From: Candidatus Dojkabacteria bacterium | GTDB taxonomy: Bacteria; Patescibacteriota; Dojkabacteria; JAFGLO01 | DNA: 54,798 nt | Direction of reading: 5' to 3' | Assembly: GCA_035371485.1 (NCBI GenBank) | Contig: DAOOWV010000002.1 | Span: 1-54,798, forward strand | In this document: one piece after another, positions 1 through 45,680 of the stretch | How the letters are laid out: each line of letters begins with the position of its first letter | Position numbering within the stretch: the first letter of the stretch is position 1 | Translations under genes and position numbers: made by a program | Notes under the pieces: model-generated | The model's input: the letters and a program-made list of their open reading frames with translations, nothing else | Told to the model about the DNA's origin: nothing | Database searches by the model: none

Positions 1-2068
1 CATTTTCTTCTCCAGCCCCGCTATCAAAACTGTTTTCTGTCTTTTCAACGTTTAGGTTAATATAGCTTTTAGATGCAAATACACCACTTCCACTGGTCCA
101 CACTGAAACCGACGTACATTTCTCACTATTCCAATAAACATCGGGTTGTTGCCAACTAATATTTCCCGAGATAGACATACTTTTTTGTCCAGAATATGGA
201 CCTACATACAAGGCACCTCCATAAGGTGGACTACTTGTACTCCACGTACAATTTGATGGGCTTCCAGATGGGGCTGTTTTTATCCAACAGTTCCTTGGGC
301 CATCTGCATTAAATTGACAAACTTGTCTATATGTCATATTTCGAGCACACCAATCCCAACAAGCTGGCCAACCTGCTACTCCAAGAGCAACATCGAAAGG
401 AATTGTTCTAACTGTCGCTTCAGCACCACCAGTATTTGAACACCATCTGTTTTCTATTGGAACCAAATAATTATCAGCCCAAGAAAATTCTCCATCTTTA
501 GTAATTAACTCCATTTTGGCATTATAGTTATTATTACTACCATAAACCATTTCAGCCCAAACCGTCAAAAATCCCTTTCCAACATCAATAAGTTTTGGTG
601 CTTCATCATAAGTTGAATATCCAGAATATGATTTTCCATTCTCTCCCCATTGTTTAACTCCGGAAGAATTAATATATTGGATATAAATACTATTTGGTGG
701 ACCATCACTATTGTACCAAGGAATATAAAACCCTCCCTCATCATCAGAAAAAGCCGTTAGTGTATCAAATCTAGGGTAGTCATATAATAAATCCATATTA
801 GTTATAAACATTTCACTAACCTGTAGAACTTCATCTTCGACCCAAAAACACGTACAAACTTCATCTGACATACAATCAGAAGCACTTCCATAAAAGTCAC
901 GTGGACGTTGAAAATCATCACAAGAAGTTGCACCAACACAATCAGGATCATCAGACCACATTAGCGGTTCAGGGTTAAATTTGGTGCCTGGTAAGTTATA
1001 CATAGTACCACTACACACATCGTTATTTTCAAAAAAATCAGGATCATCCCAAAGAGCAACTCCAGTCGATGTAAGTTTTTGAGCAAAGACCTGACCATAA
1101 TGCCATCCGACTCGTTCATCAAACCAATATATCAATATGTTATTTTCGTCATCAGCTATTAATCTCGGATGTAACCAAAGCCAATCAATCGGTAATCTTG
1201 AGACTAGTACACCATTACTATCCCAGACAAAATTTCCTAATATATTTATTTTATATAAAGCTATTTCCGATCCCAGCCACGGAGCTCCAATCCATTCTGG
1301 ATCTTCAATTGAGTCATCATAAGGTCTGTTTAAACCAATTACTAAGTCTCCATTTCCGTCAATCGCACTATTAAAAGATAAAGTTCCCAAATAATTTGAA
1401 CCCTGTTCAATTTCTACACCATTATTCCAAAGCTTATTCCCATTTGAATCTAATAATTGAGCTACTATTTTTTCAGAAACACCCAAACTTACAGTATTAT
1501 CGTTAATAGGGGAGTAAACTGCATAAAAGTAGCCATTTTGAGCTGAAAGAATCGGAAAAACATCATAGCTAGTGTGCACATAATCAATAAAAACTCCATC
1601 TGCTCCCCATCCAAGACTACCATCCGGCATTACCTTTTGAACCATTAATTCATTATCTGGTGAAACATATCCAACATAAAGAGCATCTTCAGGTGCAGAT
1701 AATAATTTAAAAGTGAATGGGTCATAAGATTCTGAGAACACATCAAATATTAATGGGGAAGACCATATTTCAACACCATCAACATCAAATTTATTAACAT
1801 AGAGTTGGTTTCCATCAACTAACCATCCGACATAAAAATTTTCACCATCTGCACCAATTATTCTCGCATTTTGTGTCGTTGAGCCAGTAACATTTGTAAT
1901 CTCTTTTCCTAGTTCACTCCATTCAAGAAGTGGAAAAGATGTACTAGCAGAAACCCCAGTCAAATCTCTTTGAATCCATACCACTCCCAATCCCAATAAA
2001 AGCATTGATACAAAATAAAATGTCGCTTTTAAAGTAGTCTTTTTCAATGTAACTTTTATTAAACTCAT
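1..2068 (-). CDS. Large secreted/surface protein, partial (C-terminus beyond left window edge); function unknown
   Basis: Absent from the ORF track because no stop lies in the window. The ATG at 2068-2066 opens a stop-free minus frame running to position 2. The N-terminus MSLIKVTLKKTTLKATFYFVSMLLLGLGVVW looks like a signal anchor. The body is W/G/D/Y-rich with a Cys-rich block (CVGATSCDDF...CMSDEVCTCFW). Confidence 0.7.
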   Translation of the reverse strand, partial: MSLIKVTLKKTTLKATFYFVSMLLLGLGVVWIQRDLTGVSASTSFPLLEWSELGKEITNVTGSTTQNARIIGADGENFYVGWLVDGNQLYVNKFDVDGVEIWSSPLIFDVFSESYDPFTFKLLSAPEDALYVGYVSPDNELMVQKVMPDGSLGWGADGVFIDYVHTSYDVFPILSAQNGYFYAVYSPINDNTVSLGVSEKIVAQLLDSNGNKLWNNGVEIEQGSNYLGTLSFNSAIDGNGDLVIGLNRPYDDSIEDPEWIGAPWLGSEIALYKINILGNFVWDSNGVLVSRLPIDWLWLHPRLIADDENNILIYWFDERVGWHYGQVFAQKLTSTGVALWDDPDFFENNDVCSGTMYNLPGTKFNPEPLMWSDDPDCVGATSCDDFQRPRDFYGSASDCMSDEVCTCFWVEDEVLQVSEMFITNMDLLYDYPRFDTLTAFSDDEGGFYIPWYNSDGPPNSIYIQYINSSGVKQWGENGKSYSGYSTYDEAPKLIDVGKGFLTVWAEMVYGSNNNYNAKMELITKDGEFSWADNYLVPIENRWCSNTGGAEATVRTIPFDVALGVAGWPACWDWCARNMTYRQVCQFNADGPRNCWIKTAPSGSPSNCTWSTSSPPYGGALYVGPYSGQKSMSISGNISWQQPDVYWNSEKCTSVSVWTSGSGVFASKSYINLNVEKTENSFDSGAGEEN

Positions 2069-2879: not shown

Positions 2880-3046
2880 GCGCTTGTAGTCCCGACAGAC
2901 CACAACGGTAGTTGTAATGGTCTAGTCGAGGATCCTCACACCATATGATTAATAAGGAAAGTGGTGTGGGACTCAATTGGATACGCATCCGCCTCTGGCG
3001 GAGAGCAGACCTTTCTAACGATAGGACTGCTGAATATTGAAAAGAT
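2880..3046 (+). other. tRNA-Arg-like 5' portion (acceptor 5' strand, D arm, UCU-like anticodon context) interrupted by structured inserts
   Basis: Three blocks match the intact tRNA. GCGCTTGTAG (2880-2889), CTCAATTGGATA (2972-2983) and GAGCAG (3003-3008) are identical to 3047-3056, 3057-3068 and 3069-3074. They are separated by an 82-nt self-complementary insert and the hairpin TCCGCC-TCT-GGCGGA. A stem GCAGACC/GGACTGC follows, with a loop that begins TTTCTAA. Confidence 0.5.
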
Positions 3047-3120
3047 GCGCTTGTAGCTCAATTGGATAGAGCAGTCCCGTCCTAAGGGAAAGGTTGGAGG
3101 TTCGATTCCTCCCAAGCGTA
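3047..3120 (+). tRNA. tRNA-Arg (anticodon CCT)
   Basis: Cloverleaf folded by hand. Acceptor GCGCTTG/CAAGCGT (G1.U72). D arm GCTC-AATTGGATA-GAGC. Anticodon arm GTCCC-GTCCTAA-GGGAA. T arm GGAGG-TTCGATT-CCTCC. Discriminator A, and no encoded CCA. Confidence 0.85.
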
Positions 3121-3219
3121 ATGCAGATGTGGAATCGTCTTTCGTGGGAGGTTACCGCCAAAGGCGGATTAGACACTTGAGTTTTGTAAGAGTCTAGCGA
3201 TTCCTCCCAAGGCGTAAAG
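3121..3219 (+). other. tRNA-Arg-like 3' portion (T arm plus acceptor 3' strand) with a 44-nt insert in the T loop
   Basis: GGGAGG-TT (3146-3153), then insert 3154-3197 (hairpins CCGCC-AAA-GGCGG and TAGACACTT/AAGAGTCTA), then CGATTCCTCCCAAG (3198-3211, identical to 3103-3116), then GCGTA. Confidence 0.5.
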
Positions 3220-4641: not shown

Positions 4642-5163
4642 ATGGAAAACAAATCAGAAGCACTAAAAAAACTGCTTAAGGTCGGGGTTGAAATTGCCAG
4701 CTTGGCTTTTGTTGCCTTTGGTGCTTTTTCTGATAAGGTTAGAAGGGAGATTTTCGAAAGGGATAAGGGAACTTGCCAACGCTGTGGGAGGAGGTTTAAA
4801 GATGGTTGGATGTTGCAATGTTCGCATTTTGATCATGAAAGAAATGAAGGATATGACGATCCGGAGAATGGACAACTGGAATGCATAAGGTGTCATATGG
4901 CTAATCATTTATCGCAGATGGGCAGTTGGGGAGATGAACATTATAGAGCGGTTGTATTATTAGCTGGTCTTGTAATGAGGGAGGGATATCATACGTGGAA
5001 ATGGTACTTGGAAAATCCAGCCCGCGCCGAAGTGCAAAAGCAAGAGGATATTTCAGATATGTTTGAATTATTTGGTAGAAATGGTTATAATGCTTGGGAT
5101 TTTATAGATAATGATAATGAACAAAGTTATGTCAACAGAAGATTGGTACTTAAAAAGTATTGA
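4642..5163 (+). CDS. HNH nuclease-domain protein with N-terminal hydrophobic helix
   Basis: CQRCGRRF...CSHFDHERNEGYDDPENGQLECIRCHMANH matches the HNH/zinc-finger motif pattern. Confidence 0.6.
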   Translation: MENKSEALKKLLKVGVEIASLAFVAFGAFSDKVRREIFERDKGTCQRCGRRFKDGWMLQCSHFDHERNEGYDDPENGQLECIRCHMANHLSQMGSWGDEHYRAVVLLAGLVMREGYHTWKWYLENPARAEVQKQEDISDMFELFGRNGYNAWDFIDNDNEQSYVNRRLVLKKY

Positions 5164-5945
5164 AACAGACGTGGAATATCTAAACCCAGAATTATATCAA
5201 GATATGCTCAAAACCACCGATGTTACCGTTGCAATTCATAATGCAACTGAGATTACCTTCACAATGGCAACACAGATATTTTGTTGCAAAAAATTTACAG
5301 AAACATTTGGGGACCATGGGGGAGTGATCCCGAATGTTTTAATGATAATGAAATCAATATTGTTTTAAATCCTACAAATACAAGTTATGGTATAGCTAGA
5401 GTTTCTTTCCCAGACTTAATAAATAAGGATTTAACAAATCCTCTGTTTCTGAAGAACACATTTTCTACTATATTATTGATGGAAATAAAACGTATTGTAC
5501 CGATCTAGGATTTGATTATCATTTTGGACCCACAGGAGTAAATGAATACATTAAAAATAAATACGAAGTAATAATAAATGGTGTAAATGACGAAGATAGA
5601 ATCAAAGAAGCAGATGAATTCTTCAAGCAATATTTTGAACTAAATATTGAAAGCACTAATGACAATAATGGTGATACAAATAATTCCCTATTTTATTCAT
5701 ACGAAGGAGAACGAAATGACCTCGGAGATAACACAACTTGGTTAGTATTTAAATACACAAAAGATTCAACTGCATTGGAAAACCTACTTGACAAAAATAG
5801 ACAAACTGAATTTCCCGCATTAGCAAATTTGCAAATTGGCGACAAGTTCATAATAAAATACGATAATATTAACTGCTTAGCCGGAGCAGGAACAGGCTAT
5901 TGTAGGCTATTAACCGAAAATCTTACATTCCCAAAAGTAGAGTAG
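5129..5945 (+). pseudogene. Frameshifted gene of unknown function (three consecutive reading frames)
   Basis: Coding-like sequence continues from frame 2 (5129-5368) into frame 1 (to 5508). It then moves into frame 0 (about 5427-5945, no canonical start). The first junction lies at an A6 run near 5285. Confidence 0.5.
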
Positions 5946-13833: not shown

Positions 13834-14343
13834 TTACTTAGTAATTAAGAAATTTTTTGTAAATTCATCCATATTTACAAAATCATCAACCTCTTCAGAT
13901 AATGCCTTGGAACAAGTTTTTCCAAAAGCATAAAGTTCAACCAAGCAACCCTCCGATTGCTGTAAATATTTAACCAAAGGAATGTAATCTCCATCACCGC
14001 TTATTAAAACAATAGAATCAACCTTCTTACCCATACGAATCGCATCCATTGTTATCCCAACATCCCAATCACCTTTTTTAGCACCACCTGGGAATATCTG
14101 TAAATCTTTTTCTTTAATCTCAAAACCAGATTTATTTAATGCTTCAAAAAAATCTTTTTCCTTCGTTACAACATCAGTTTTAATTACATAGGCTATCGCC
14201 CTTACTAAAATTCGATCAGCTACAGCATGATCTAAAACTCTTCTAAAGTTAACTTTTGCCTTATAGAGATGTTTAGCGCTGTAATAAAGATTTTGAACAT
14301 CTACAAGCACGGCGACACGTTGATCTTTGTGTTTGGCAATCAT
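13834..14343 (-). CDS. NYN/LabA-like (PIN-related) domain protein
   Basis: VAVLVDVQNLYYS and LISGDGDYIPLV are typical NYN/DUF88 motifs. Confidence 0.8.
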   Translation of the reverse strand: MIAKHKDQRVAVLVDVQNLYYSAKHLYKAKVNFRRVLDHAVADRILVRAIAYVIKTDVVTKEKDFFEALNKSGFEIKEKDLQIFPGGAKKGDWDVGITMDAIRMGKKVDSIVLISGDGDYIPLVKYLQQSEGCLVELYAFGKTCSKALSEEVDDFVNMDEFTKNFLITK

Positions 14344-30201: not shown

Positions 30202-30912
30202 TCACTTTTTCTTTCCAATACTAGAAAACATCTTCTTCATTTCTTCAACTCCACTCTTTAATCGCTGTTTAAACTTTTCAAAGTTACTTTTTAACTCTTG
30301 CCACATTTTCTTAAACGGTTCTTTAATAAGAATCCTTTTTCTTTCAAGCTTAGAAGTATTTTTTACCTTTTTTACATCATTATTTGCTACAGATGGGATA
30401 GACTTTTCTGTTTCCACTGTTATTTTGTTTTCATTTTTTTTCACTTCAGATTGATCTTCAGGTACAAAAGAATACCCGCATTGTGAACAAAAAGAATTGT
30501 AGTATGGAGAATATGTTCCACATTTAGGACATTGTTTCCTTAGTTTAGATCCACAATATCTGCAAAATATATTTTCAGACTCATTAATTTTTTTACAGTT
30601 ATAACATTCCATTACTGAAAGAGATTCAGAAAATAAAGCTTTTTTCTCTAAATCTATATAATACTTCTCATCAAGGGAATATTTGTTTCTTAAAACCAAA
30701 TACAAAAATAGTCCAATTAAGGGGACCATCCCTATTAAAGTCAATAGTACAATACTCCAGAACTCTTTATACCTTCTACCAGCATCAATTCTAATCCAAA
30801 TTGCAACTAGAATCCATTGTAAAAAAAGTAAAGCAAAGACATAAAACGCAACAACATATATATTCTCAGCTACCCATTCAATACTACTTACGATTATTTT
30901 TTCGTCAATCAT
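30202..30912 (-). CDS. Membrane protein with PLDc_N-like N-terminus and double zinc ribbon
   Basis: WIRIDAGRRYKEFWSIVLLTLIGMVPLIGLFLYLVLR, then CYNCKK...CRYCG...CPKCG...CSQCG. Confidence 0.6.
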   Translation of the reverse strand: MIDEKIIVSSIEWVAENIYVVAFYVFALLFLQWILVAIWIRIDAGRRYKEFWSIVLLTLIGMVPLIGLFLYLVLRNKYSLDEKYYIDLEKKALFSESLSVMECYNCKKINESENIFCRYCGSKLRKQCPKCGTYSPYYNSFCSQCGYSFVPEDQSEVKKNENKITVETEKSIPSVANNDVKKVKNTSKLERKRILIKEPFKKMWQELKSNFEKFKQRLKSGVEEMKKMFSSIGKKK

Positions 30913-31040
30913 TTTATTATTTTATAACTAAAATGTTTTACCAGTAATCACTTTTCGTTCTAAAACAACTCTATTCTAAAAAAAACAATTCCCTGTCGTT
31001 GCTAAAGCTTCAACAGACAAGCCGGCTTGAACGAATTAAC

Positions 31041-31075
31041 TTTTCACCTTTCACTTTTCATTTTTCACTTGTAAT
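31041..31075. repeat. Heptamer array TTTTCAC x4
   Basis: ttttcac ctttcac ttttcat ttttcac ttgtaat. Confidence 0.8.
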
Positions 31076-31076
31076 C

Positions 31077-31159
31077 TGCCGAAGGAGCTCGCACCTTACA
31101 CGAGCTGAACACGAGTTATGTTAACTCGTAATTCTAAAGAAACGATTCCCTCATTCGGC
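31077..31159 (-). other. tRNA-Leu-derived acceptor/T-arm-like element with internal hairpins
   Basis: The minus strand reads GCCGAATGAGGG...[ACGAGTT-AACAT-AACTCGT; AGCTCG-TGTAAGGTG-CGAGCT]...CTCCTTCGGCA. The 16-nt TAATCTGCCGAAGGAG at 31072-31087 exactly repeats 31181-31196, which is the tRNA-Leu 3' end plus flank. Confidence 0.5.
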
Positions 31160-31185
31160 AACCTCTTTTTCTCAACTCAATAATC

Positions 31186-31269
31186 TGCCGAAGGAGGGAA
31201 TCGAACCCTCACCCACTTGCGTGGACGGGATTTTGAGTCCCGCGTGTATACCAATTCCACCACTTCGGC
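31186..31269 (-). tRNA. tRNA-Leu (anticodon CAA), class II
   Basis: Acceptor GCCGAAG/CTTCGGC. D arm with GGAATTGGTATAC. Anticodon arm CGGGA-CTCAAAA-TCCCG. Long variable arm TCCACGCAAGTGGGT. T arm GAGGG-TTCGATT-CCCTC. Discriminator A. Confidence 0.85.
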
Positions 31270-31449
31270 GTGGTTTATTTATTTATTTGTTACGCCTTTG
31301 TGGTGAAAATTTAAGGTGTATACCCTGCCTTGACTTACGTTTCGGCAGATTCACAACCATGTTAGCAACTTCGTTGCTACAGGGTTGGAACAATTCCACC
31401 ACTCCCGCCTGCCTGTCCTTAATTACAATTGTCTGGCGGGCAGGTCGGC
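31270..31449 (-). other. tRNA-Leu-like 5' portion interrupted by two large structured inserts
   Basis: Minus-strand blocks GCCGA (31449-31445), AGTGGTGGAATTG (31403-31391, identical to 31264-31252) and GTATACAC (31323-31316, identical to 31251-31244) keep tRNA order. They are split by a 41-nt GC-rich insert and a 67-nt insert. A degenerate CTTAAAT (UAA-like) segment follows. Confidence 0.5.
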
Positions 31450-31479
31450 CCTCAATAAATAATAATTAATACCCACCCT

Positions 31480-31514
31480 CTATCAATTCTTACATATCAA
31501 CTATCACTTATCAT
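31480..31514. repeat. Heptamer array NTATCAN
   Basis: ctatcaa ttcttac atatcaa ctatcac ttatcat. Confidence 0.65.
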
Positions 31515-31547: not shown

Positions 31548-32858
31548 TTAATTTTTGTATATATTCTTGAAACTTGCAAGTTCCTTTACAAAAGCCACTT
31601 CAACTTCACCTATTGGACCATTTCTGTGCTTAGCAACAATAATATCTGCAATTCCTTTTTTTTCAGTATCTGGAACATAAAGTTCTTCTCTATGAATAAA
31701 CATTACAACATCAGCATCCTGTTCAATTGATCCTGAATCACGTAAATCTGAAAGCTGTGGTCTTCGGTCACTTCTTGATTCGACCCCTCTTGAAAGCTGA
31801 GATAACGCAACAACTGGTACTGAAAGTTCCCTAGCAAGATTTTTAAGCCCCATTGATACTTCAGCAATCTCCTGAACTCTATTTTCTAAACCTCTACTTC
31901 GTAAAAGCTGTAAATAGTCAACAACTATAAAATCTACTCCTACCTCAGAATGCAATCTTCTCGCTTTTGCCCTAAGTTCCATGACAGACTGTCCAGGTTT
32001 ATCGTCAATATATATTGATGCATCAGCCAATCTACCAAAAGCATTTCCCAATTTCTGAAACATCTCATCAGATAATTTCCCTGTATGCAAATCCCACATA
32101 CTAACTTCCGCCAACATAGACAATAACCTATCAATAATCTGCATTCTTGACATTTCCAATGAAAAAATACCCACCTTCTTTTTTTGTTCTATTGATGCAT
32201 TAAGTGCAAACCCCAAAGCACACGCCGATTTACCAACTGAAGGACGTGCAGCTAAAATTACCAAATCTGAAGGCTGAAATCCTCCCAAAATTGCGTCTAA
32301 ACCCTTTAATCCTGACCTTATACCATCAAAATCTTTATTTTGATCAAGTTTCTCTGCTCGTTCATAAGCCTCTTTAAGGAGATCTTTAATGTGAATAAAT
32401 CTATCTCCAACTCTTTCTTGAGATATTGAAAACAGTCCTTGTTCGGCTTCATCCAGTACAACTGCAACTTCTTTATTCTCTTCAAAAGCCAATTCTTCAA
32501 TTTTGGATGCTGCAGATATCAATTTTCTTCTTATACTAAGCTCTTTAACGATCGTTGCATATTCCTGAGCATGAGCTGCAGTAGGAACTGAACTAGCAAC
32601 TTCACTTAAGTATTCAACTCCTCCAATAGCTTTTAACTGTTTACGCTTTCTTAAATGGTCCGCAAGCGTCATTATATCAATAGAAATTCCTTGATCCAAC
32701 AAATCAATTATACTCTCATAAATTGTTCTATGTCTGCTATCATACCAGTGTTCCGGAAGTAATATTTCAGCAGCAGTCAAAATTGCATCTTTATCAAGCA
32801 AAAATGATCCAATTAAGGAAGCTTCAATTTCTACGTTATGTGGAGGAATTTTATCCAT
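31548..32858 (-). CDS. dnaB: Replicative DNA helicase DnaB
   Basis: IPPHNVEIEASLIGSFLLD N-terminus, Walker A ARPSVGKSACALG, and IVVDYLQLL and SQLSR motifs. Confidence 0.95.
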   Translation of the reverse strand: MDKIPPHNVEIEASLIGSFLLDKDAILTAAEILLPEHWYDSRHRTIYESIIDLLDQGISIDIMTLADHLRKRKQLKAIGGVEYLSEVASSVPTAAHAQEYATIVKELSIRRKLISAASKIEELAFEENKEVAVVLDEAEQGLFSISQERVGDRFIHIKDLLKEAYERAEKLDQNKDFDGIRSGLKGLDAILGGFQPSDLVILAARPSVGKSACALGFALNASIEQKKKVGIFSLEMSRMQIIDRLLSMLAEVSMWDLHTGKLSDEMFQKLGNAFGRLADASIYIDDKPGQSVMELRAKARRLHSEVGVDFIVVDYLQLLRSRGLENRVQEIAEVSMGLKNLARELSVPVVALSQLSRGVESRSDRRPQLSDLRDSGSIEQDADVVMFIHREELYVPDTEKKGIADIIVAKHRNGPIGEVEVAFVKELASFKNIYKN

Positions 32859-37005: not shown

Positions 37006-37057
37006 TATGAATAAGTAAAATTATATTTATAAGATAAAGCGATTGCACCTTTAAATA

Positions 37058-37131
37058 CACGCTTGGGGGGAATCGAACCTCCAACCCCCACTTCCGCAAA
37101 GTGGTGCTCTATCCAATTGAGCTACAAGCGC
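37058..37131 (-). tRNA. tRNA-Arg (anticodon GCG)
   Basis: It shares its acceptor and D arm with the tRNA at 3047 (GCGCTTGTAGCTCAATTGGATAGAGC). Anticodon arm CCACT-TTGCGGA-AGTGG. The T arm GGAGG-TTCGATT-CCCCC has one A.C mismatch. Discriminator G. Confidence 0.75.
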
Positions 37132-37139
37132 AAAATTAT

Positions 37140-43652: not shown

Positions 43653-44222
43653 TCATTCACTAAAGGTTTCTGTTGTATAAGTTTTTATATTGATCCTATT
43701 TTTCTTCCAATAATCAGCTACAAGCCCAGCTTTCATACAAAGATGTGAAAAGAAAGAATCCACATCAGCTAACTCCTTCCAGACATCTGGTAAAAAAGTA
43801 GCTCTGTTAAAAACTCCTACTTCCAATATCACCCCTACTCTATTTTCAGTGAAAAATTTAAAAATATCATCGGTACTATGATATTGAAACTCGATTGGAC
43901 TTGTCAAAATTGAAACTGTAATTTTTACTTTTCCAAATTCATCAAGACTAAGTGGAAAAAATCTTGTATCCTCAAACGCCGAATCATATGCATGTTCAAT
44001 TACATCAATATATAATGCTCTATATGCTTCAAGCGTTCCAATACAGCCTCTCAGATCTCCGTTAATTTCTAATGTAACAAAAGTAGCTTTTTTCTCTTTC
44101 AAATAATCATCTAAATCTGATAGCGTTGAACAGTCAAATTTTTTACCTTCATTCAAATATGTTTCTATAGACTTTCGAGCAAGTAAAAGCATTGTCTTTC
44201 TTTGGTGTTTATTATATTCCAC
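43653..44222 (-). CDS. AMMECR1-domain protein (AmmeMemoRadiSam system protein A)
   Basis: GDLRGCIGT motif, and adjacency to the MEMO and radical SAM genes. Confidence 0.85.
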   Translation of the reverse strand: MEYNKHQRKTMLLLARKSIETYLNEGKKFDCSTLSDLDDYLKEKKATFVTLEINGDLRGCIGTLEAYRALYIDVIEHAYDSAFEDTRFFPLSLDEFGKVKITVSILTSPIEFQYHSTDDIFKFFTENRVGVILEVGVFNRATFLPDVWKELADVDSFFSHLCMKAGLVADYWKKNRINIKTYTTETFSE

Positions 44223-44263
44223 AGCCTTAAATTTAAAATGTTAAATGTCGAATTGTCGTTGGT

Positions 44264-44312
44264 GGTTAGTGATTAGTGACTAGTCACTTCTCACCTATCA
44301 CGTATCATTTTC
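44264..44312. repeat. Heptamer array switching strand type at a perfect 14-nt palindrome
   Basis: ggttagt gattagt gactagt cacttct cacctat cacgtat cattttc. AGTGACTAGTCACT (44275-44288) is its own reverse complement. Confidence 0.8.
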
Positions 44313-45117
44313 ATTTAAAAACAATTCCCACATACCCCACTACTCCACCCATTTCCCCAGTTATCATTCCTGAATGTTTGTATTCAACTAGTATAGGTTT
44401 TAACTTATTAGCTTTCGCAATAAGAATAGCAATTTCAATCCCGACAAGACCACAAGCCGCTTCTTCTGTAAAATTTGATTCTAAATTCAAAATTTTATTT
44501 ATAGTGTTTTGATCAATTTTTTGTGCAATCTTAGATGGATAATAATGAGATAAATCAGTACTTATTACTAATAAACCATCGTTTTTAATAGTTTCAATTA
44601 AAGTCGAAACCACCCCTTCTGCATCCTCCAAATCACTTGATAACATAGGGATTATCTTTGATTTAGGGTGTAAAATTGATACAAAAGGTAATTGAACTTC
44701 TATTGAATGCTCATCCACAAATGCTTCATTTTTTATACTGAAACCACTAGATTTTGACAATTCATTTATTTTTCCAACATTGCCACTTGCAACCCCAAGT
44801 GGTGTCCACCAAGACGGACATGTGCACAAACCTATATTTTTAACATATTGAGTGTGAGCTGAACCTAAAATGTAAATATTTTTATAATTGTATCCTTCTG
44901 TTTGTTTATAAACCTTACCAGCAACTTTTCCTGAAAAGAAATATCCCGCATGTGGAACAATAATTATCCTTGGAATAGATTTTGTCAACTTCTTTCCTTC
45001 CCCAACATATTCTAAAATATCTCTTTTTAATTCATTTGCGTCTTGAGGATAGAAAGATCCAGCAAATCTTGCCTCTCGTACATTTTCAAAAAAATCATTC
45101 ATTATTGTATTCTTCAC
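44311..45117 (-). CDS. MEMO1-family protein (AmmeMemoRadiSam system protein B)
   Basis: IIVPHAGYFFSG and STDLSHY motifs. Confidence 0.85.
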   Translation of the reverse strand: MKNTIMNDFFENVREARFAGSFYPQDANELKRDILEYVGEGKKLTKSIPRIIIVPHAGYFFSGKVAGKVYKQTEGYNYKNIYILGSAHTQYVKNIGLCTCPSWWTPLGVASGNVGKINELSKSSGFSIKNEAFVDEHSIEVQLPFVSILHPKSKIIPMLSSDLEDAEGVVSTLIETIKNDGLLVISTDLSHYYPSKIAQKIDQNTINKILNLESNFTEEAACGLVGIEIAILIAKANKLKPILVEYKHSGMITGEMGGVVGYVGIVFK

Positions 45118-45128
45118 TATTGTATTAT

Positions 45129-45680
45129 CTAATAATACACATGTTTTAATCCTACTTCCTTCCCTATTTTTACAGCTTTCTCAACAATTTCATAAGATGT
45201 ACTTTTTTTATCCATCATTTTATATGCAGGATGAAAAGCCGAAACATGCCATGGGATTCCACTATCAACACTCTTTACAAATTTAGCTATAGAGGTTATT
45301 TCATCAATTGAGTCATTTTCACCAGGAACAAGTAAAGTTGTAATCTCAACCCATACACCTAATTTATGAGTATATCTTATACTTTCAAGCACGTTATCAA
45401 GTTTCGCTCCACAAATTTTATTATAAAATCTTTCTGTAAATGCCTTTAGGTCAATATTAACTGCATCCAGATATGGGCTTATCATATCTATAGCCTCTTT
45501 AGAATAATAGCCATTTGAAACATAAACGTTTTTTATTCCTTTTTTGTTTGCTAGTTTAGCAGTATCATAAGTATATTCAAAAAAGATTGTGGGCTCATTG
45601 AATGTATAAGCTATTGATGGAATCTTGTTCATAAGACAATACTTTACAATTTCTGAAGGAGAAAGCTCTGTAGCATACAT
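45129..45680 (-). CDS. AmmeMemoRadiSam radical SAM enzyme, C-terminal part (after an in-frame TAA)
   Basis: SPSEIVKYC...IAYTFNEPTIFFEY continues the family sequence. It is in the same frame as 45687-45983. Confidence 0.7.
   Translation of the reverse strand: MYATELSPSEIVKYCLMNKIPSIAYTFNEPTIFFEYTYDTAKLANKKGIKNVYVSNGYYSKEAIDMISPYLDAVNIDLKAFTERFYNKICGAKLDNVLESIRYTHKLGVWVEITTLLVPGENDSIDEITSIAKFVKSVDSGIPWHVSAFHPAYKMMDKKSTSYEIVEKAVKIGKEVGLKHVYY

Follow-up and report, generated by a model that had tools for sequence, protein, structure and literature searches.

An intact tRNA-Leu(CAA) gene lies between two modules built from copies of its own ends

The DNA analyzed here is a window of 54.8 kb (positions 1 to 54,798 of contig DAOOWV010000002.1; G+C about 31%), and its richest kilobase in G+C (0.40) is the region of the spacer that separates dnaB (31548-32858, minus strand) from a zinc-ribbon gene (30202-30912). 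Within these 635 nt, an intact gene for tRNA-Leu(CAA) is flanked on both sides by structured modules that carry sense and antisense copies of the ends of that same tRNA. Modules of this kind are recurrent at tRNA genes of Patescibacteria and are apparently undescribed. The tRNA-Leu(CAA) gene (31186-31269, minus strand, CCA not encoded) was recognized by both ARAGORN and Rfam (RF00005, 62.2 bits), in agreement with an earlier sequence-only reading of this DNA, and it is the sole gene that the two programs detect in the spacer. The sequence-only reading had described a nested, mosaic layout around the tRNA, and all sequence features that it listed were recovered in place when the minus strand was read. 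Two features go beyond it, namely an antisense copy of the tRNA 5' end within the upstream module, called module (a), and an 18-nt antisense segment with which the downstream module, called module (c), begins.

Module (a) (31270-31449, minus strand) is a displaced 5' copy of the tRNA, composed of three blocks, two inserts, and a 46-nt tail. Its blocks GCCGA (31445-31449), AGTGGTGGAATTG (31391-31403), and GTATACAC (31316-31323), once joined, correspond to nt 1-26 of the intact tRNA-Leu(CAA) with 100% identity. The first two blocks are separated by insert i1 (31404-31444), a 41-nt GC-rich hairpin with the termini CCTGCCCGCC...GGCAGGCGGG, and the last two by insert i2 (31324-31390), which is 67 nt long, forms two hairpins, and has an end, ...AAGGCAGG, that resembles i1. 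The complete mosaic at 31316-31449 (GCCGA, 41 nt, AGTGGTGGAATTG, 67 nt, GTATACAC) occurs once in the window and in none of 100 shuffled sequences, which bears out the earlier description of blocks identical to the gene and interrupted by these two inserts. Also as described earlier, i2 contains an antisense copy of the tRNA 3' end, the 11-nt segment AATCTGCCGAA (31341-31351), which is complementary to the 3' end plus 4 nt of the trailer. The newly recognized antisense of the tRNA 5' end (TTTCACCAC AAA GGCGT, 31292-31308, minus strand) has as its partner in predicted folds either the displaced blocks of module (a) or nt -2 to +15 of the real tRNA.

On the other side of the gene, module (c) starts with the antisense segment TGCCGAATGAGGGAATCG (31143-31160, minus strand), which is complementary to the tRNA 3' end at 17 of 18 positions and provides the 5' arm of a closing stem. 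The core that follows (31088-31142, minus strand) consists of a hairpin ACGAGTTA/TAACTCGT and a hairpin AGCTCG/CGAGCT with the loop TGTAAGGTG. The 3' arm of the closing stem is supplied by a direct repeat of the tRNA end. This repeat, TAATCTGCCGAAGGAG, is identical at 16 of 16 nt and occurs exactly twice, once as the last 11 nt of the tRNA with 5 nt of trailer (31181-31196, minus strand) and once as the displaced 3' end with the same length of trailer (31072-31087, minus strand); the two copies are separated by 93 non-coding nt. In 100 shuffles no second copy was encountered, even when 2 mismatches were allowed, so that the exact repeat of 11 nt tRNA plus 5 nt flank reported in the sequence-only reading is confirmed. 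In the acceptor-like part of the closing stem, GCCGAAT faces CTTCGGC with 6 of 7 positions paired, an A follows in the place of the discriminator, and the helix reaches 10 bp. The spacer is not a hairpin here.

Taken together, the locus has a mirror-symmetric order: displaced 5' copy, core, antisense, 20 nt, tRNA, 25 nt, antisense, core, displaced 3' copy. Read outward from the gene, each module presents an antisense of one tRNA end at a distance of 20-25 nt, then a structured core, and finally the same end in sense orientation. Because the antisense segment pairs with the outer sense copy, each module closes on itself. Since the direct repeat runs into the trailer (5 nt here and 8 nt at a related locus described below), it copies DNA and not mature tRNA, and as the modules are also absent from the orthologous locus of some relatives, the sequences place the origin of the repeat at the DNA level. 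A 7-nt complementarity of CACCTTA in module (a) to TAAGGTG in a hairpin loop of module (c) was judged to be at chance level.

Predicted folding and transcription of the unit

Folding predictions gave structures more stable than those of shuffled sequences for both modules. In the region of module (a) (31270-31452, z = -4.0) the helices named in the sequence-only reading are present, and module (c) (31077-31160, z = -4.5) folds into the acceptor-like closing stem around its hairpins that had been expected from the letters; for the whole precursor z = -7.4 was obtained. In 22 of 25 modules, folding is more favorable for the strand that carries the tRNA sense than for the opposite strand, although this asymmetry in folding energy is mostly a matter of base composition (p = 0.055).

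A consensus scan revealed a promoter-like site TTGATA-16 nt-TATTAT (31459-31486, minus strand; 10 of 12 matches, a consensus match only). From its sequence, transcription is likely to start a few nt ahead of module (a), and because the site lies just upstream of this module, the whole unit is probably one transcript. A weak hairpin followed by T8 (30978-31021, minus strand), read from the sequence, might be the end of the transcription unit. As a terminator this hairpin does not convince: its fold is no better than that of shuffles, and the scan was silent on it.

Search for a hidden or split tRNA

The sequence-only reading had described the upstream part as tRNA-Leu-like, with a UAA-like anticodon context. 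A gene of the tRNA-Leu(UAA) type with introns is not supported there, as removal of the inserts leaves no anticodon stem, no variable arm, and neither T arm nor T loop that could be assembled from the outer blocks. With the Rfam tRNA model, the intact gene was the sole match at the Leu locus up to an E-value of 10. ARAGORN produced no tRNA-Leu when introns were permitted, when thresholds were lowered to 70-80%, in tmRNA mode, or from hand-spliced constructs; a tRNA-Val called in module (c) at the 70% threshold was spurious. On inspection, none of the insert junctions forms a bulge-helix-bulge; they are simple hairpins whose first and last bases are paired, without 3-nt bulges 4 bp apart. Group I and group II intron families gave no Rfam match at gathering score or at E-values up to 10, and under the same settings Rfam 15 found nothing but tRNAs and one rRNA in the window and 19 related loci. 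The inserts, 19-82 nt long, are placed in the acceptor and D regions and not in the anticodon loop.

The codon usage of the window raises the question of which tRNAs read its commonest codons. UUA is the most frequent Leu codon (471 of 1283) and AGA the most frequent Arg codon, and no canonical gene reading UUA or AGA was found in the window by ARAGORN. As these codons are the commonest, genes for tRNA-Leu(UAA) and tRNA-Arg(UCU) must exist somewhere in the genome; in other Patescibacteria, tRNA-Leu(UAA) in canonical form is the norm. The locus probably holds one conventional tRNA-Leu(CAA) gene, and the modules are probably not a second, split tRNA gene.

The orthologous locus in relatives and in assemblies of the same strain

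For comparison, loci and contigs from other assemblies and genomes were used, which are designated by L-numbers. The window encodes bacterial proteins such as DnaB, L9, RuvABC, and an RluD-type protein, and the named nearest relatives of its DnaB are mostly labelled Candidatus Dojkabacteria (WS6, Patescibacteria), the closest being just 69-72% identical. A metagenome search with DnaB returned relatives of 44-53% identity and none closer. In five contigs (L126, L127, L128, L227, and L229) DnaB is about 64-72% identical to that of the window. The order dnaB, tRNA-Leu(CAA), zinc-ribbon gene is kept in L126, L128, and L227 and is rearranged in L127 and L229. In L127, a 72-amino-acid open reading frame (ORF) and about 500 nt are inserted between dnaB and tRNA-Leu (5309-5830), and the contig stops inside the tRNA.

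In L227/L228 and L128 the tRNA-Leu(CAA) gene is bare and represents an empty site. L126 lacks an upstream module; downstream, an antisense piece and a hairpin are followed by a perfect repeat of 17 nt, of which 9 belong to the tRNA and 8 to the trailer. This downstream module uses the acceptor sequence of its own tRNA, GCCAGCG, and not GCCGAAG, and it has a single mismatch opposite tRNA position 66, the same position as in the window. Core sequences are not conserved between the window and L126, and both modules occur together at the orthologous locus in this window only. Clearly, the modules are not a fixed partner of tRNA-Leu(CAA). Because the six closest DnaB lineages are about equidistant from one another, the order of gains and losses cannot be set.

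Other samples have yielded assemblies of the same strain, which match the window at 99.98-100% identity and show no indel at the Leu or the Arg(CCT) locus. Compared with four of them, a spacer stretch of 661 nt differs at one position, 31158, which is C here and T elsewhere; over about 13-21 kb, these assemblies differ from the window by 1-2 single-nucleotide polymorphisms (SNPs) and once by a single-base gap. Base 31158 is the second of the acceptor-like 5' arm of module (c), where the change from C to T turns a G-C pair into G-U. At the matching position, several related modules likewise have T where their own tRNA has C.

The tRNA-Arg genes of the window

The intact tRNA-Arg(CCT) gene (3046-3121, plus strand; ARAGORN and Rfam) is likewise accompanied by two modules. 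Upstream (2880-3045, plus strand), the blocks GCGCTTGTAG, CTCAATTGGATA, and GAGCAG are separated by 82 and 19 nt and together represent nt 1-28 of the tRNA; the fold has z = -4.7, and in the shuffle test the mosaic is as non-random as that of the Leu locus. Downstream (3122-3216, plus strand; fold z = -2.1), the antisense pieces GGAATCG and TGGGAGG are followed by two hairpins, the second of which contains TGTAAG, and by a copy of the 3' end, CGATTCCTCCCAAG(G)CGTA. The third tRNA gene of the window, tRNA-Arg(GCG) (37057-37132), has no flanking modules. About 17 nt 3' of it lies GCAATCG, one mismatch away from the antisense T-loop piece GGAATCG that follows the other two tRNAs.

A wider family of modules in Patescibacteria

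A comparison set of 120 loci from many phyla was collected by a search with a D-arm 20-mer that is common to many phyla. In Patescibacteria loci, a downstream layout was seen at Leu, Cys, Tyr, Ser, Phe, Lys, Arg, His, Val, and Gly tRNAs, and when modules of either side are considered, Ala and Glu tRNAs are also concerned. It comprises a terminator-like hairpin, at many but not at all of these loci, then a copy of the acceptor 5' strand and, often, a covarying hairpin; then come an antisense of the T loop and of the 3' strand of the T stem, a core of 60-120 nt, and a copy of 14-20 nt of the tRNA's own 3' end. A repeat of the 3' end of at least 12 nt within 400 nt was present at 11 of 131 Patescibacteria-labelled tRNAs and at 1 of 93 from other phyla (p = 0.016), and a downstream antisense of at least 10 nt within 120 nt at 14 of 131 and 0 of 93, respectively (p = 0.0005). 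The distance from repeat to repeat is narrow and small (89-220 nt), and neither cargo nor a recombinase was found between the repeats in about 20 related cases.

Two types of core can be distinguished. The longer one has the conserved motifs GAAAGGCGGAG, AAGCACTTAG, and TTAGTGACTTG. The shorter one carries a small TGTAA-loop hairpin right before the repeat and is represented by both downstream modules of the window and by L058, L096, and L038. In L096 (about 130-505, minus strand), two modules stand in tandem 3' of tRNA-Tyr; at least the first of them has a terminator-like hairpin of its own behind it. The junction in L038 is a perfect palindrome, CAAGTCC|GGACTTG. In Paceibacteria-type loci such as L082 and L058, a single long inverted repeat, with the terminator loop at its centre, takes in the tRNA 3' end, the terminator, and the antisense. 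No Rfam family matched the related modules, BLAST searches of the locus against phages and plasmids matched the tRNA part alone, and a search of the open literature on the motifs and on tRNA-flanking structures in this phylum found nothing relevant. The core motif of the longer modules had 16 matches in 2.9 million viral contigs, none of them with the element and most of them clearly coding, and these were treated as chance.

GC-rich hairpin inserts in displaced tRNA fragments

Upstream of tRNA genes in L034, L038, L096, L114, L179, L221, and L080 there are likewise partial 5' copies, the first base of which is exactly nt 1 of the tRNA. Most of them are split by GC-rich hairpins that start with approximately (C)CCGCCT(A/T)CG and end with CGGCGG(A/G)CAGG or GGCAGG, and termini of the CC(T/C)GCC...GGC(A/G)GG type are common to inserts in unrelated Patescibacteria. 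Judged by its sequence, i1 is a member of this family, and in the window a hairpin of the family is present at the Leu locus only. The inserts are precise: the flanking tRNA blocks are contiguous and there is no target duplication. The idea put forward in the sequence-only reading that further copies of the inserts might be found holds insofar as termini of the same type split tRNA-derived fragments in unrelated Patescibacteria, and fails within the window, where each insert is unique.

An exact 20-nt palindrome, CCTGCCTGCCGGCAGGCAGG, is shared by five genomes (L034, L072, L074, L080, and L203). A tRNA gene is 21-69 nt away from it in four of the five carriers, and a tRNA-derived fragment contains it in L034, L080, and L072; in L074 it precedes the 23S rRNA by about 740 nt and is probably part of the rRNA operon. 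Its perfect two-fold symmetry suggests that it is recognized at the DNA level. Nesting is clearest in L080 (2310-2590, minus strand), where a broken outer tRNA-Ala(GGC) has intact acceptor, D, and anticodon arms and a defective T arm. This outer copy contains four inserts, one of which has the termini of the family and encloses an entire working tRNA-Ala(GGC); it takes relaxed thresholds for the joined outer blocks to be called as a tRNA. The downstream copy in L072 and L203 comprises the T arm and the 3' end, with a GC-rich hairpin in the T loop. In L045, L113, and L115, a GC-rich hairpin CCCGCCT(T/A)CGCC...GGCTTCGGCGGG abuts the 5' side of tRNA-Gly(GCC), and its final bases are the first bases of the acceptor stem of that tRNA.

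Possible explanations for the modules

The explanation that we tentatively favor, at somewhat less than an even chance, is that the modules are protein-less, stem-closed insertion or duplication units that interrupt a tRNA gene close to one of its ends, re-create the gene, and leave the displaced end as a remnant, and that they are co-transcribed with the tRNA and fold on themselves. An insertion or duplication event at the DNA level would split the gene near one end; the module would bring or copy a replacement for this end, so that an intact gene persists, and the displaced end would remain as the outer repeat. At the Leu locus, the displaced 5' end would then have been interrupted twice by GC-rich hairpin inserts as a second layer. 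A unit of about 400-470 nt would be transcribed from the promoter-like site (31486-31459), and in the course of transcription the 5' antisense would meet the displaced 5' blocks that have already been made, whereas the 3' antisense would meet a tRNA that is already folded and afterwards the displaced 3' copy. Since each antisense would meet its decoy copy in the order of synthesis, the tRNA could fold and be processed normally. It would be released by the usual end-processing enzymes, and the modules would be passengers, either selfish or neutral.

Several points weigh against this explanation. The tRNA-derived blocks are 100% identical to the gene, yet the modules look old enough to have acquired very different cores, and perfect identity of the blocks fits selection or gene conversion as well as recency. 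We know of no mechanism that would explain the antisense copies. No integrase, transposase, or reverse transcriptase is encoded among the ORFs of the window, no free or autonomous form of a module was seen, and the same-strain assemblies show no polymorphism for presence or absence of a module. As each insert sequence is unique within the window, mobility inside this genome has no sign there. The longer modules contain a helix with 7 compensated pairs among 5 sequences, and in the acceptor-like helix of one L096 module a U-A pair compensates for the C-G pair of the tRNA, observations that fit a functional RNA too. Finally, when the full precursor is folded to its thermodynamic optimum, the partners of the antisense segments are the real ends of the tRNA and not the decoys, and for this reason a regulatory reading with two states stays alive.

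According to such a reading, which we regard as doubtful while giving it real weight, the modules are functional leader and trailer RNAs, either as antisense clamps and decoys in a two-state fold that gates or times tRNA maturation, or as tRNA mimics that serve as decoys or enzyme substrates. It would account for the strong predicted folds (z = -4.0, -4.5, and -4.7 for modules, -7.4 for the whole precursor), for the mirror symmetry with antisense at 20-25 nt from each tRNA end, for the promoter-like site ahead of module (a), and for the perfect conservation of the tRNA-derived blocks, and it agrees with the covariation in the longer relatives and the compensated acceptor-like pair in L096. The sole spacer SNP between assemblies also keeps the pairing, as G-C becomes G-U in the closing stem. 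The better folding of the tRNA-sense strand (22 of 25 modules) would be a further argument, were it not mostly due to base composition (p = 0.055). A required RNA is difficult to reconcile with orthologous loci that have no modules (L227, L128) or just one (L126), with a third tRNA in the window that does without, with cores that are not conserved between the window and L126, and with a repeat that extends into the non-functional trailer. We consider it unlikely that the modules represent a new class of mobile elements without proteins, for which bacterial tRNA genes would be the homing site. In such an element, folded as a single strand of DNA or RNA, the stem of antisense and sense would mimic the acceptor plus T-arm helix of the target; its insertion would restore the gene and leave the displaced end as a remnant, and the GC-rich hairpins would be an intron-like second layer that colonises tRNA-derived sequence. 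Such elements would be the bacterial counterpart of the transposing archaeal tRNA introns and of integron cassettes.

Three further readings were considered. That the modules are classical integration scars, attL/attR remnants of a larger phage, plasmid, or island of which nearly everything has been deleted and whose leftover arms form the hairpins, is in our opinion quite unlikely. Integration into tRNA genes has as its textbook hallmark a repeat that reaches from the T arm or acceptor to just beyond the 3' end, the distribution in relatives is patchy, integrated elements commonly give rise to partial tRNA genes in prokaryotes (PMC9897764), and in an archaeal precedent a 5' tRNA fragment lies upstream of the intact gene, on the other side of a 1.8-kb element bearing a recombinase (PMC3293823); this reading would, however, predict neither the tRNA-matched antisense nor the covarying hairpins nor the precise inserts in the displaced 5' end, and it has to contend with about 20 examples lacking cargo or recombinase between the repeats, with the small and narrow repeat distance (89-220 nt), and with a longer-module core motif that was not found in 2.9 million viral contigs. 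There is little to recommend the view that no element was involved and that inverted, then direct, duplications of the tRNA ends arose as mutational by-products of replication template switching or fold-back repair at the quasi-palindromic tRNA arms and nearby terminator hairpins and persist as they do no harm. The inverted repeats centred on terminator loops in Paceibacteria-type loci (e.g., L082 and L058), the junction palindrome of L038 (CAAGTCC|GGACTTG), and the inclusion of the trailer in the repeats are what such errors could produce, but they would leave unexplained why core motifs are common to different tRNAs and genomes and why GC-rich inserts share their termini; the window spacer is not a hairpin, and streamlined genomes would be expected to shed useless DNA. 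The interpretation to which we give hardly any credence is a multi-intron or split tRNA, with the outer blocks as exons of a second isoacceptor, e.g., tRNA-Leu(UAA), and with inserts, one of them holding tRNA-Leu(CAA), that are removed from the RNA. The three 5' blocks do join into a perfect 5' part of a tRNA, CTTAAAT is readable as a UAA anticodon loop, the window has no canonical reader genes for its commonest Leu and Arg codons UUA and AGA, the outer copy in L080 is a near-whole tRNA-Ala, and insertions in rRNA genes of Patescibacteria are known (Tsurumaki 2022, as cited in PMC10714607). Against this stand the searches reported above, in which no anticodon stem, variable arm, or T loop could be assembled, ARAGORN (with introns, relaxed, or hand-spliced) yielded no tRNA-Leu, Rfam gave no tRNA match for the outer blocks up to an E-value of 10, and the junctions showed neither bulge-helix-bulge motifs nor a group I or group II intron signal; moreover, relatives can have an upstream or a downstream module alone, and other Patescibacteria as a rule possess tRNA-Leu(UAA) genes in canonical form.

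A large part of bacterial diversity belongs to Patescibacteria, a group in which genes for stable RNAs are already known to be interrupted to an unusual degree. If self-folding modules made from the gene's own sequence are routine at tRNA genes of this group, annotation pipelines will meet many tRNA fragments that should not be counted as genes, and tRNA precursors would carry built-in antisense partners that could affect their maturation. DNA might then also be inserted at tRNA genes by an unrecognised route that needs no enzyme encoded by the element, which bears on how tRNA genes become split and interrupted. Even if the modules are only scars, they provide a useful catalogue of a recurrent, lineage-specific type of scar.

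Other genes of the window

No splicing endonuclease and no RNA ligase were recognized among the ORFs of the window. An ORF with an NYN domain, a nuclease fold, is located at 13834-14343 and is mentioned only because tRNA end processing is at issue. Genes for AMMECR1, Memo, and a radical-SAM protein form a trio at 43653-45680. In the ORF of an HNH endonuclease (4642-5163), 16-21 SNPs are clustered at 4755-5076 in the same-strain contigs L232 and L233, which come from two other samples, and the neighboring 2-3 kb of these contigs, including the whole Arg(CCT) mosaic, are identical to the window.

Comparison with known systems

Measured against att duplications, disrupted archaeal tRNA genes, miniature inverted-repeat transposable elements (MITEs), attC sites and the CTX attP site, and the Rfam families, the locus is a full member of none of these groups. 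Among bacterial precedents, the partial tRNA genes that integrated elements leave behind come closest (PMC9897764). As in att duplications, a repeat of the tRNA 3' end extends slightly past the gene (16 of 16 nt here, 17 nt in L126), a regenerated gene stands beside a displaced fragment, and the distribution is patchy, with empty sites in L227/L228 and L128. The modules differ in having 93 nt between the repeats, in which no recombinase or cargo was seen, and furthermore in the antisense copy, the self-closing fold, the mirror-image 5' module, and the splitting of the displaced fragment by hairpins. The suggestion in the sequence-only reading that the 16-nt repeat is an att-type or target-site duplication stands as regards a non-random repeat of the tRNA end and falls as regards a large att element or a classical transposon duplication, in view of the short distance, of the window's lack of a recombinase, and of GC-rich inserts that are not accompanied by target duplications.

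Among archaea, a 5' tRNA fragment is located upstream of the working gene at the tRNA-Thr locus of Caldiarchaeum (PMC3293823), and multiple introns, transposition of introns, and split tRNAs have been described for tRNA genes (Fujishima 2010, as cited in PMC10714607). The disrupted archaeal tRNA genes and the modules have in common that short GC-rich inserts, which form stems and are found again in different tRNAs, cut tRNA sequence at non-canonical positions, and that a fragment of the 5' end lies upstream of the gene. The modules differ in their bacterial host, in having plain hairpins instead of bulge-helix-bulge motifs and no sign of splicing, and in that their tRNA copies are incomplete and always lie beside an uninterrupted gene.

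Small palindromic insertion elements include REP/BIME sequences, the palindromic elements of Rickettsia, the GC clusters of yeast mitochondria, and MITEs. With them, the inserts have in common that they are short, GC-rich hairpins with conserved termini in an AT-rich genome and that they can sit inside RNA genes. The inserts differ by not being dispersed (one tRNA locus in 54.8 kb) and by their position inside tRNA-derived fragments; their termini pair as in MITEs and other transposons with terminal inverted repeats, but they show no target-site duplication and no other copies in the window.

Integron attC sites and the attP hairpin of the CTX phage that is used by Xer recombinases are recombination sites formed by folded single strands. 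Neither an integron integrase nor a Xer site is visible in the window, the cognate tyrosine recombinase and its core were likewise not found there, and the junctions have no GTTRRRY or dif-like core; in addition, the end of the target tRNA varies with each module. The likeness is one of topology only, and in this respect it is close: sense, short cargo, antisense, variable loop, and sense follow each other in the same order, an imperfect hairpin mimics the target duplex, and the units can form tandem arrays, as in L096.

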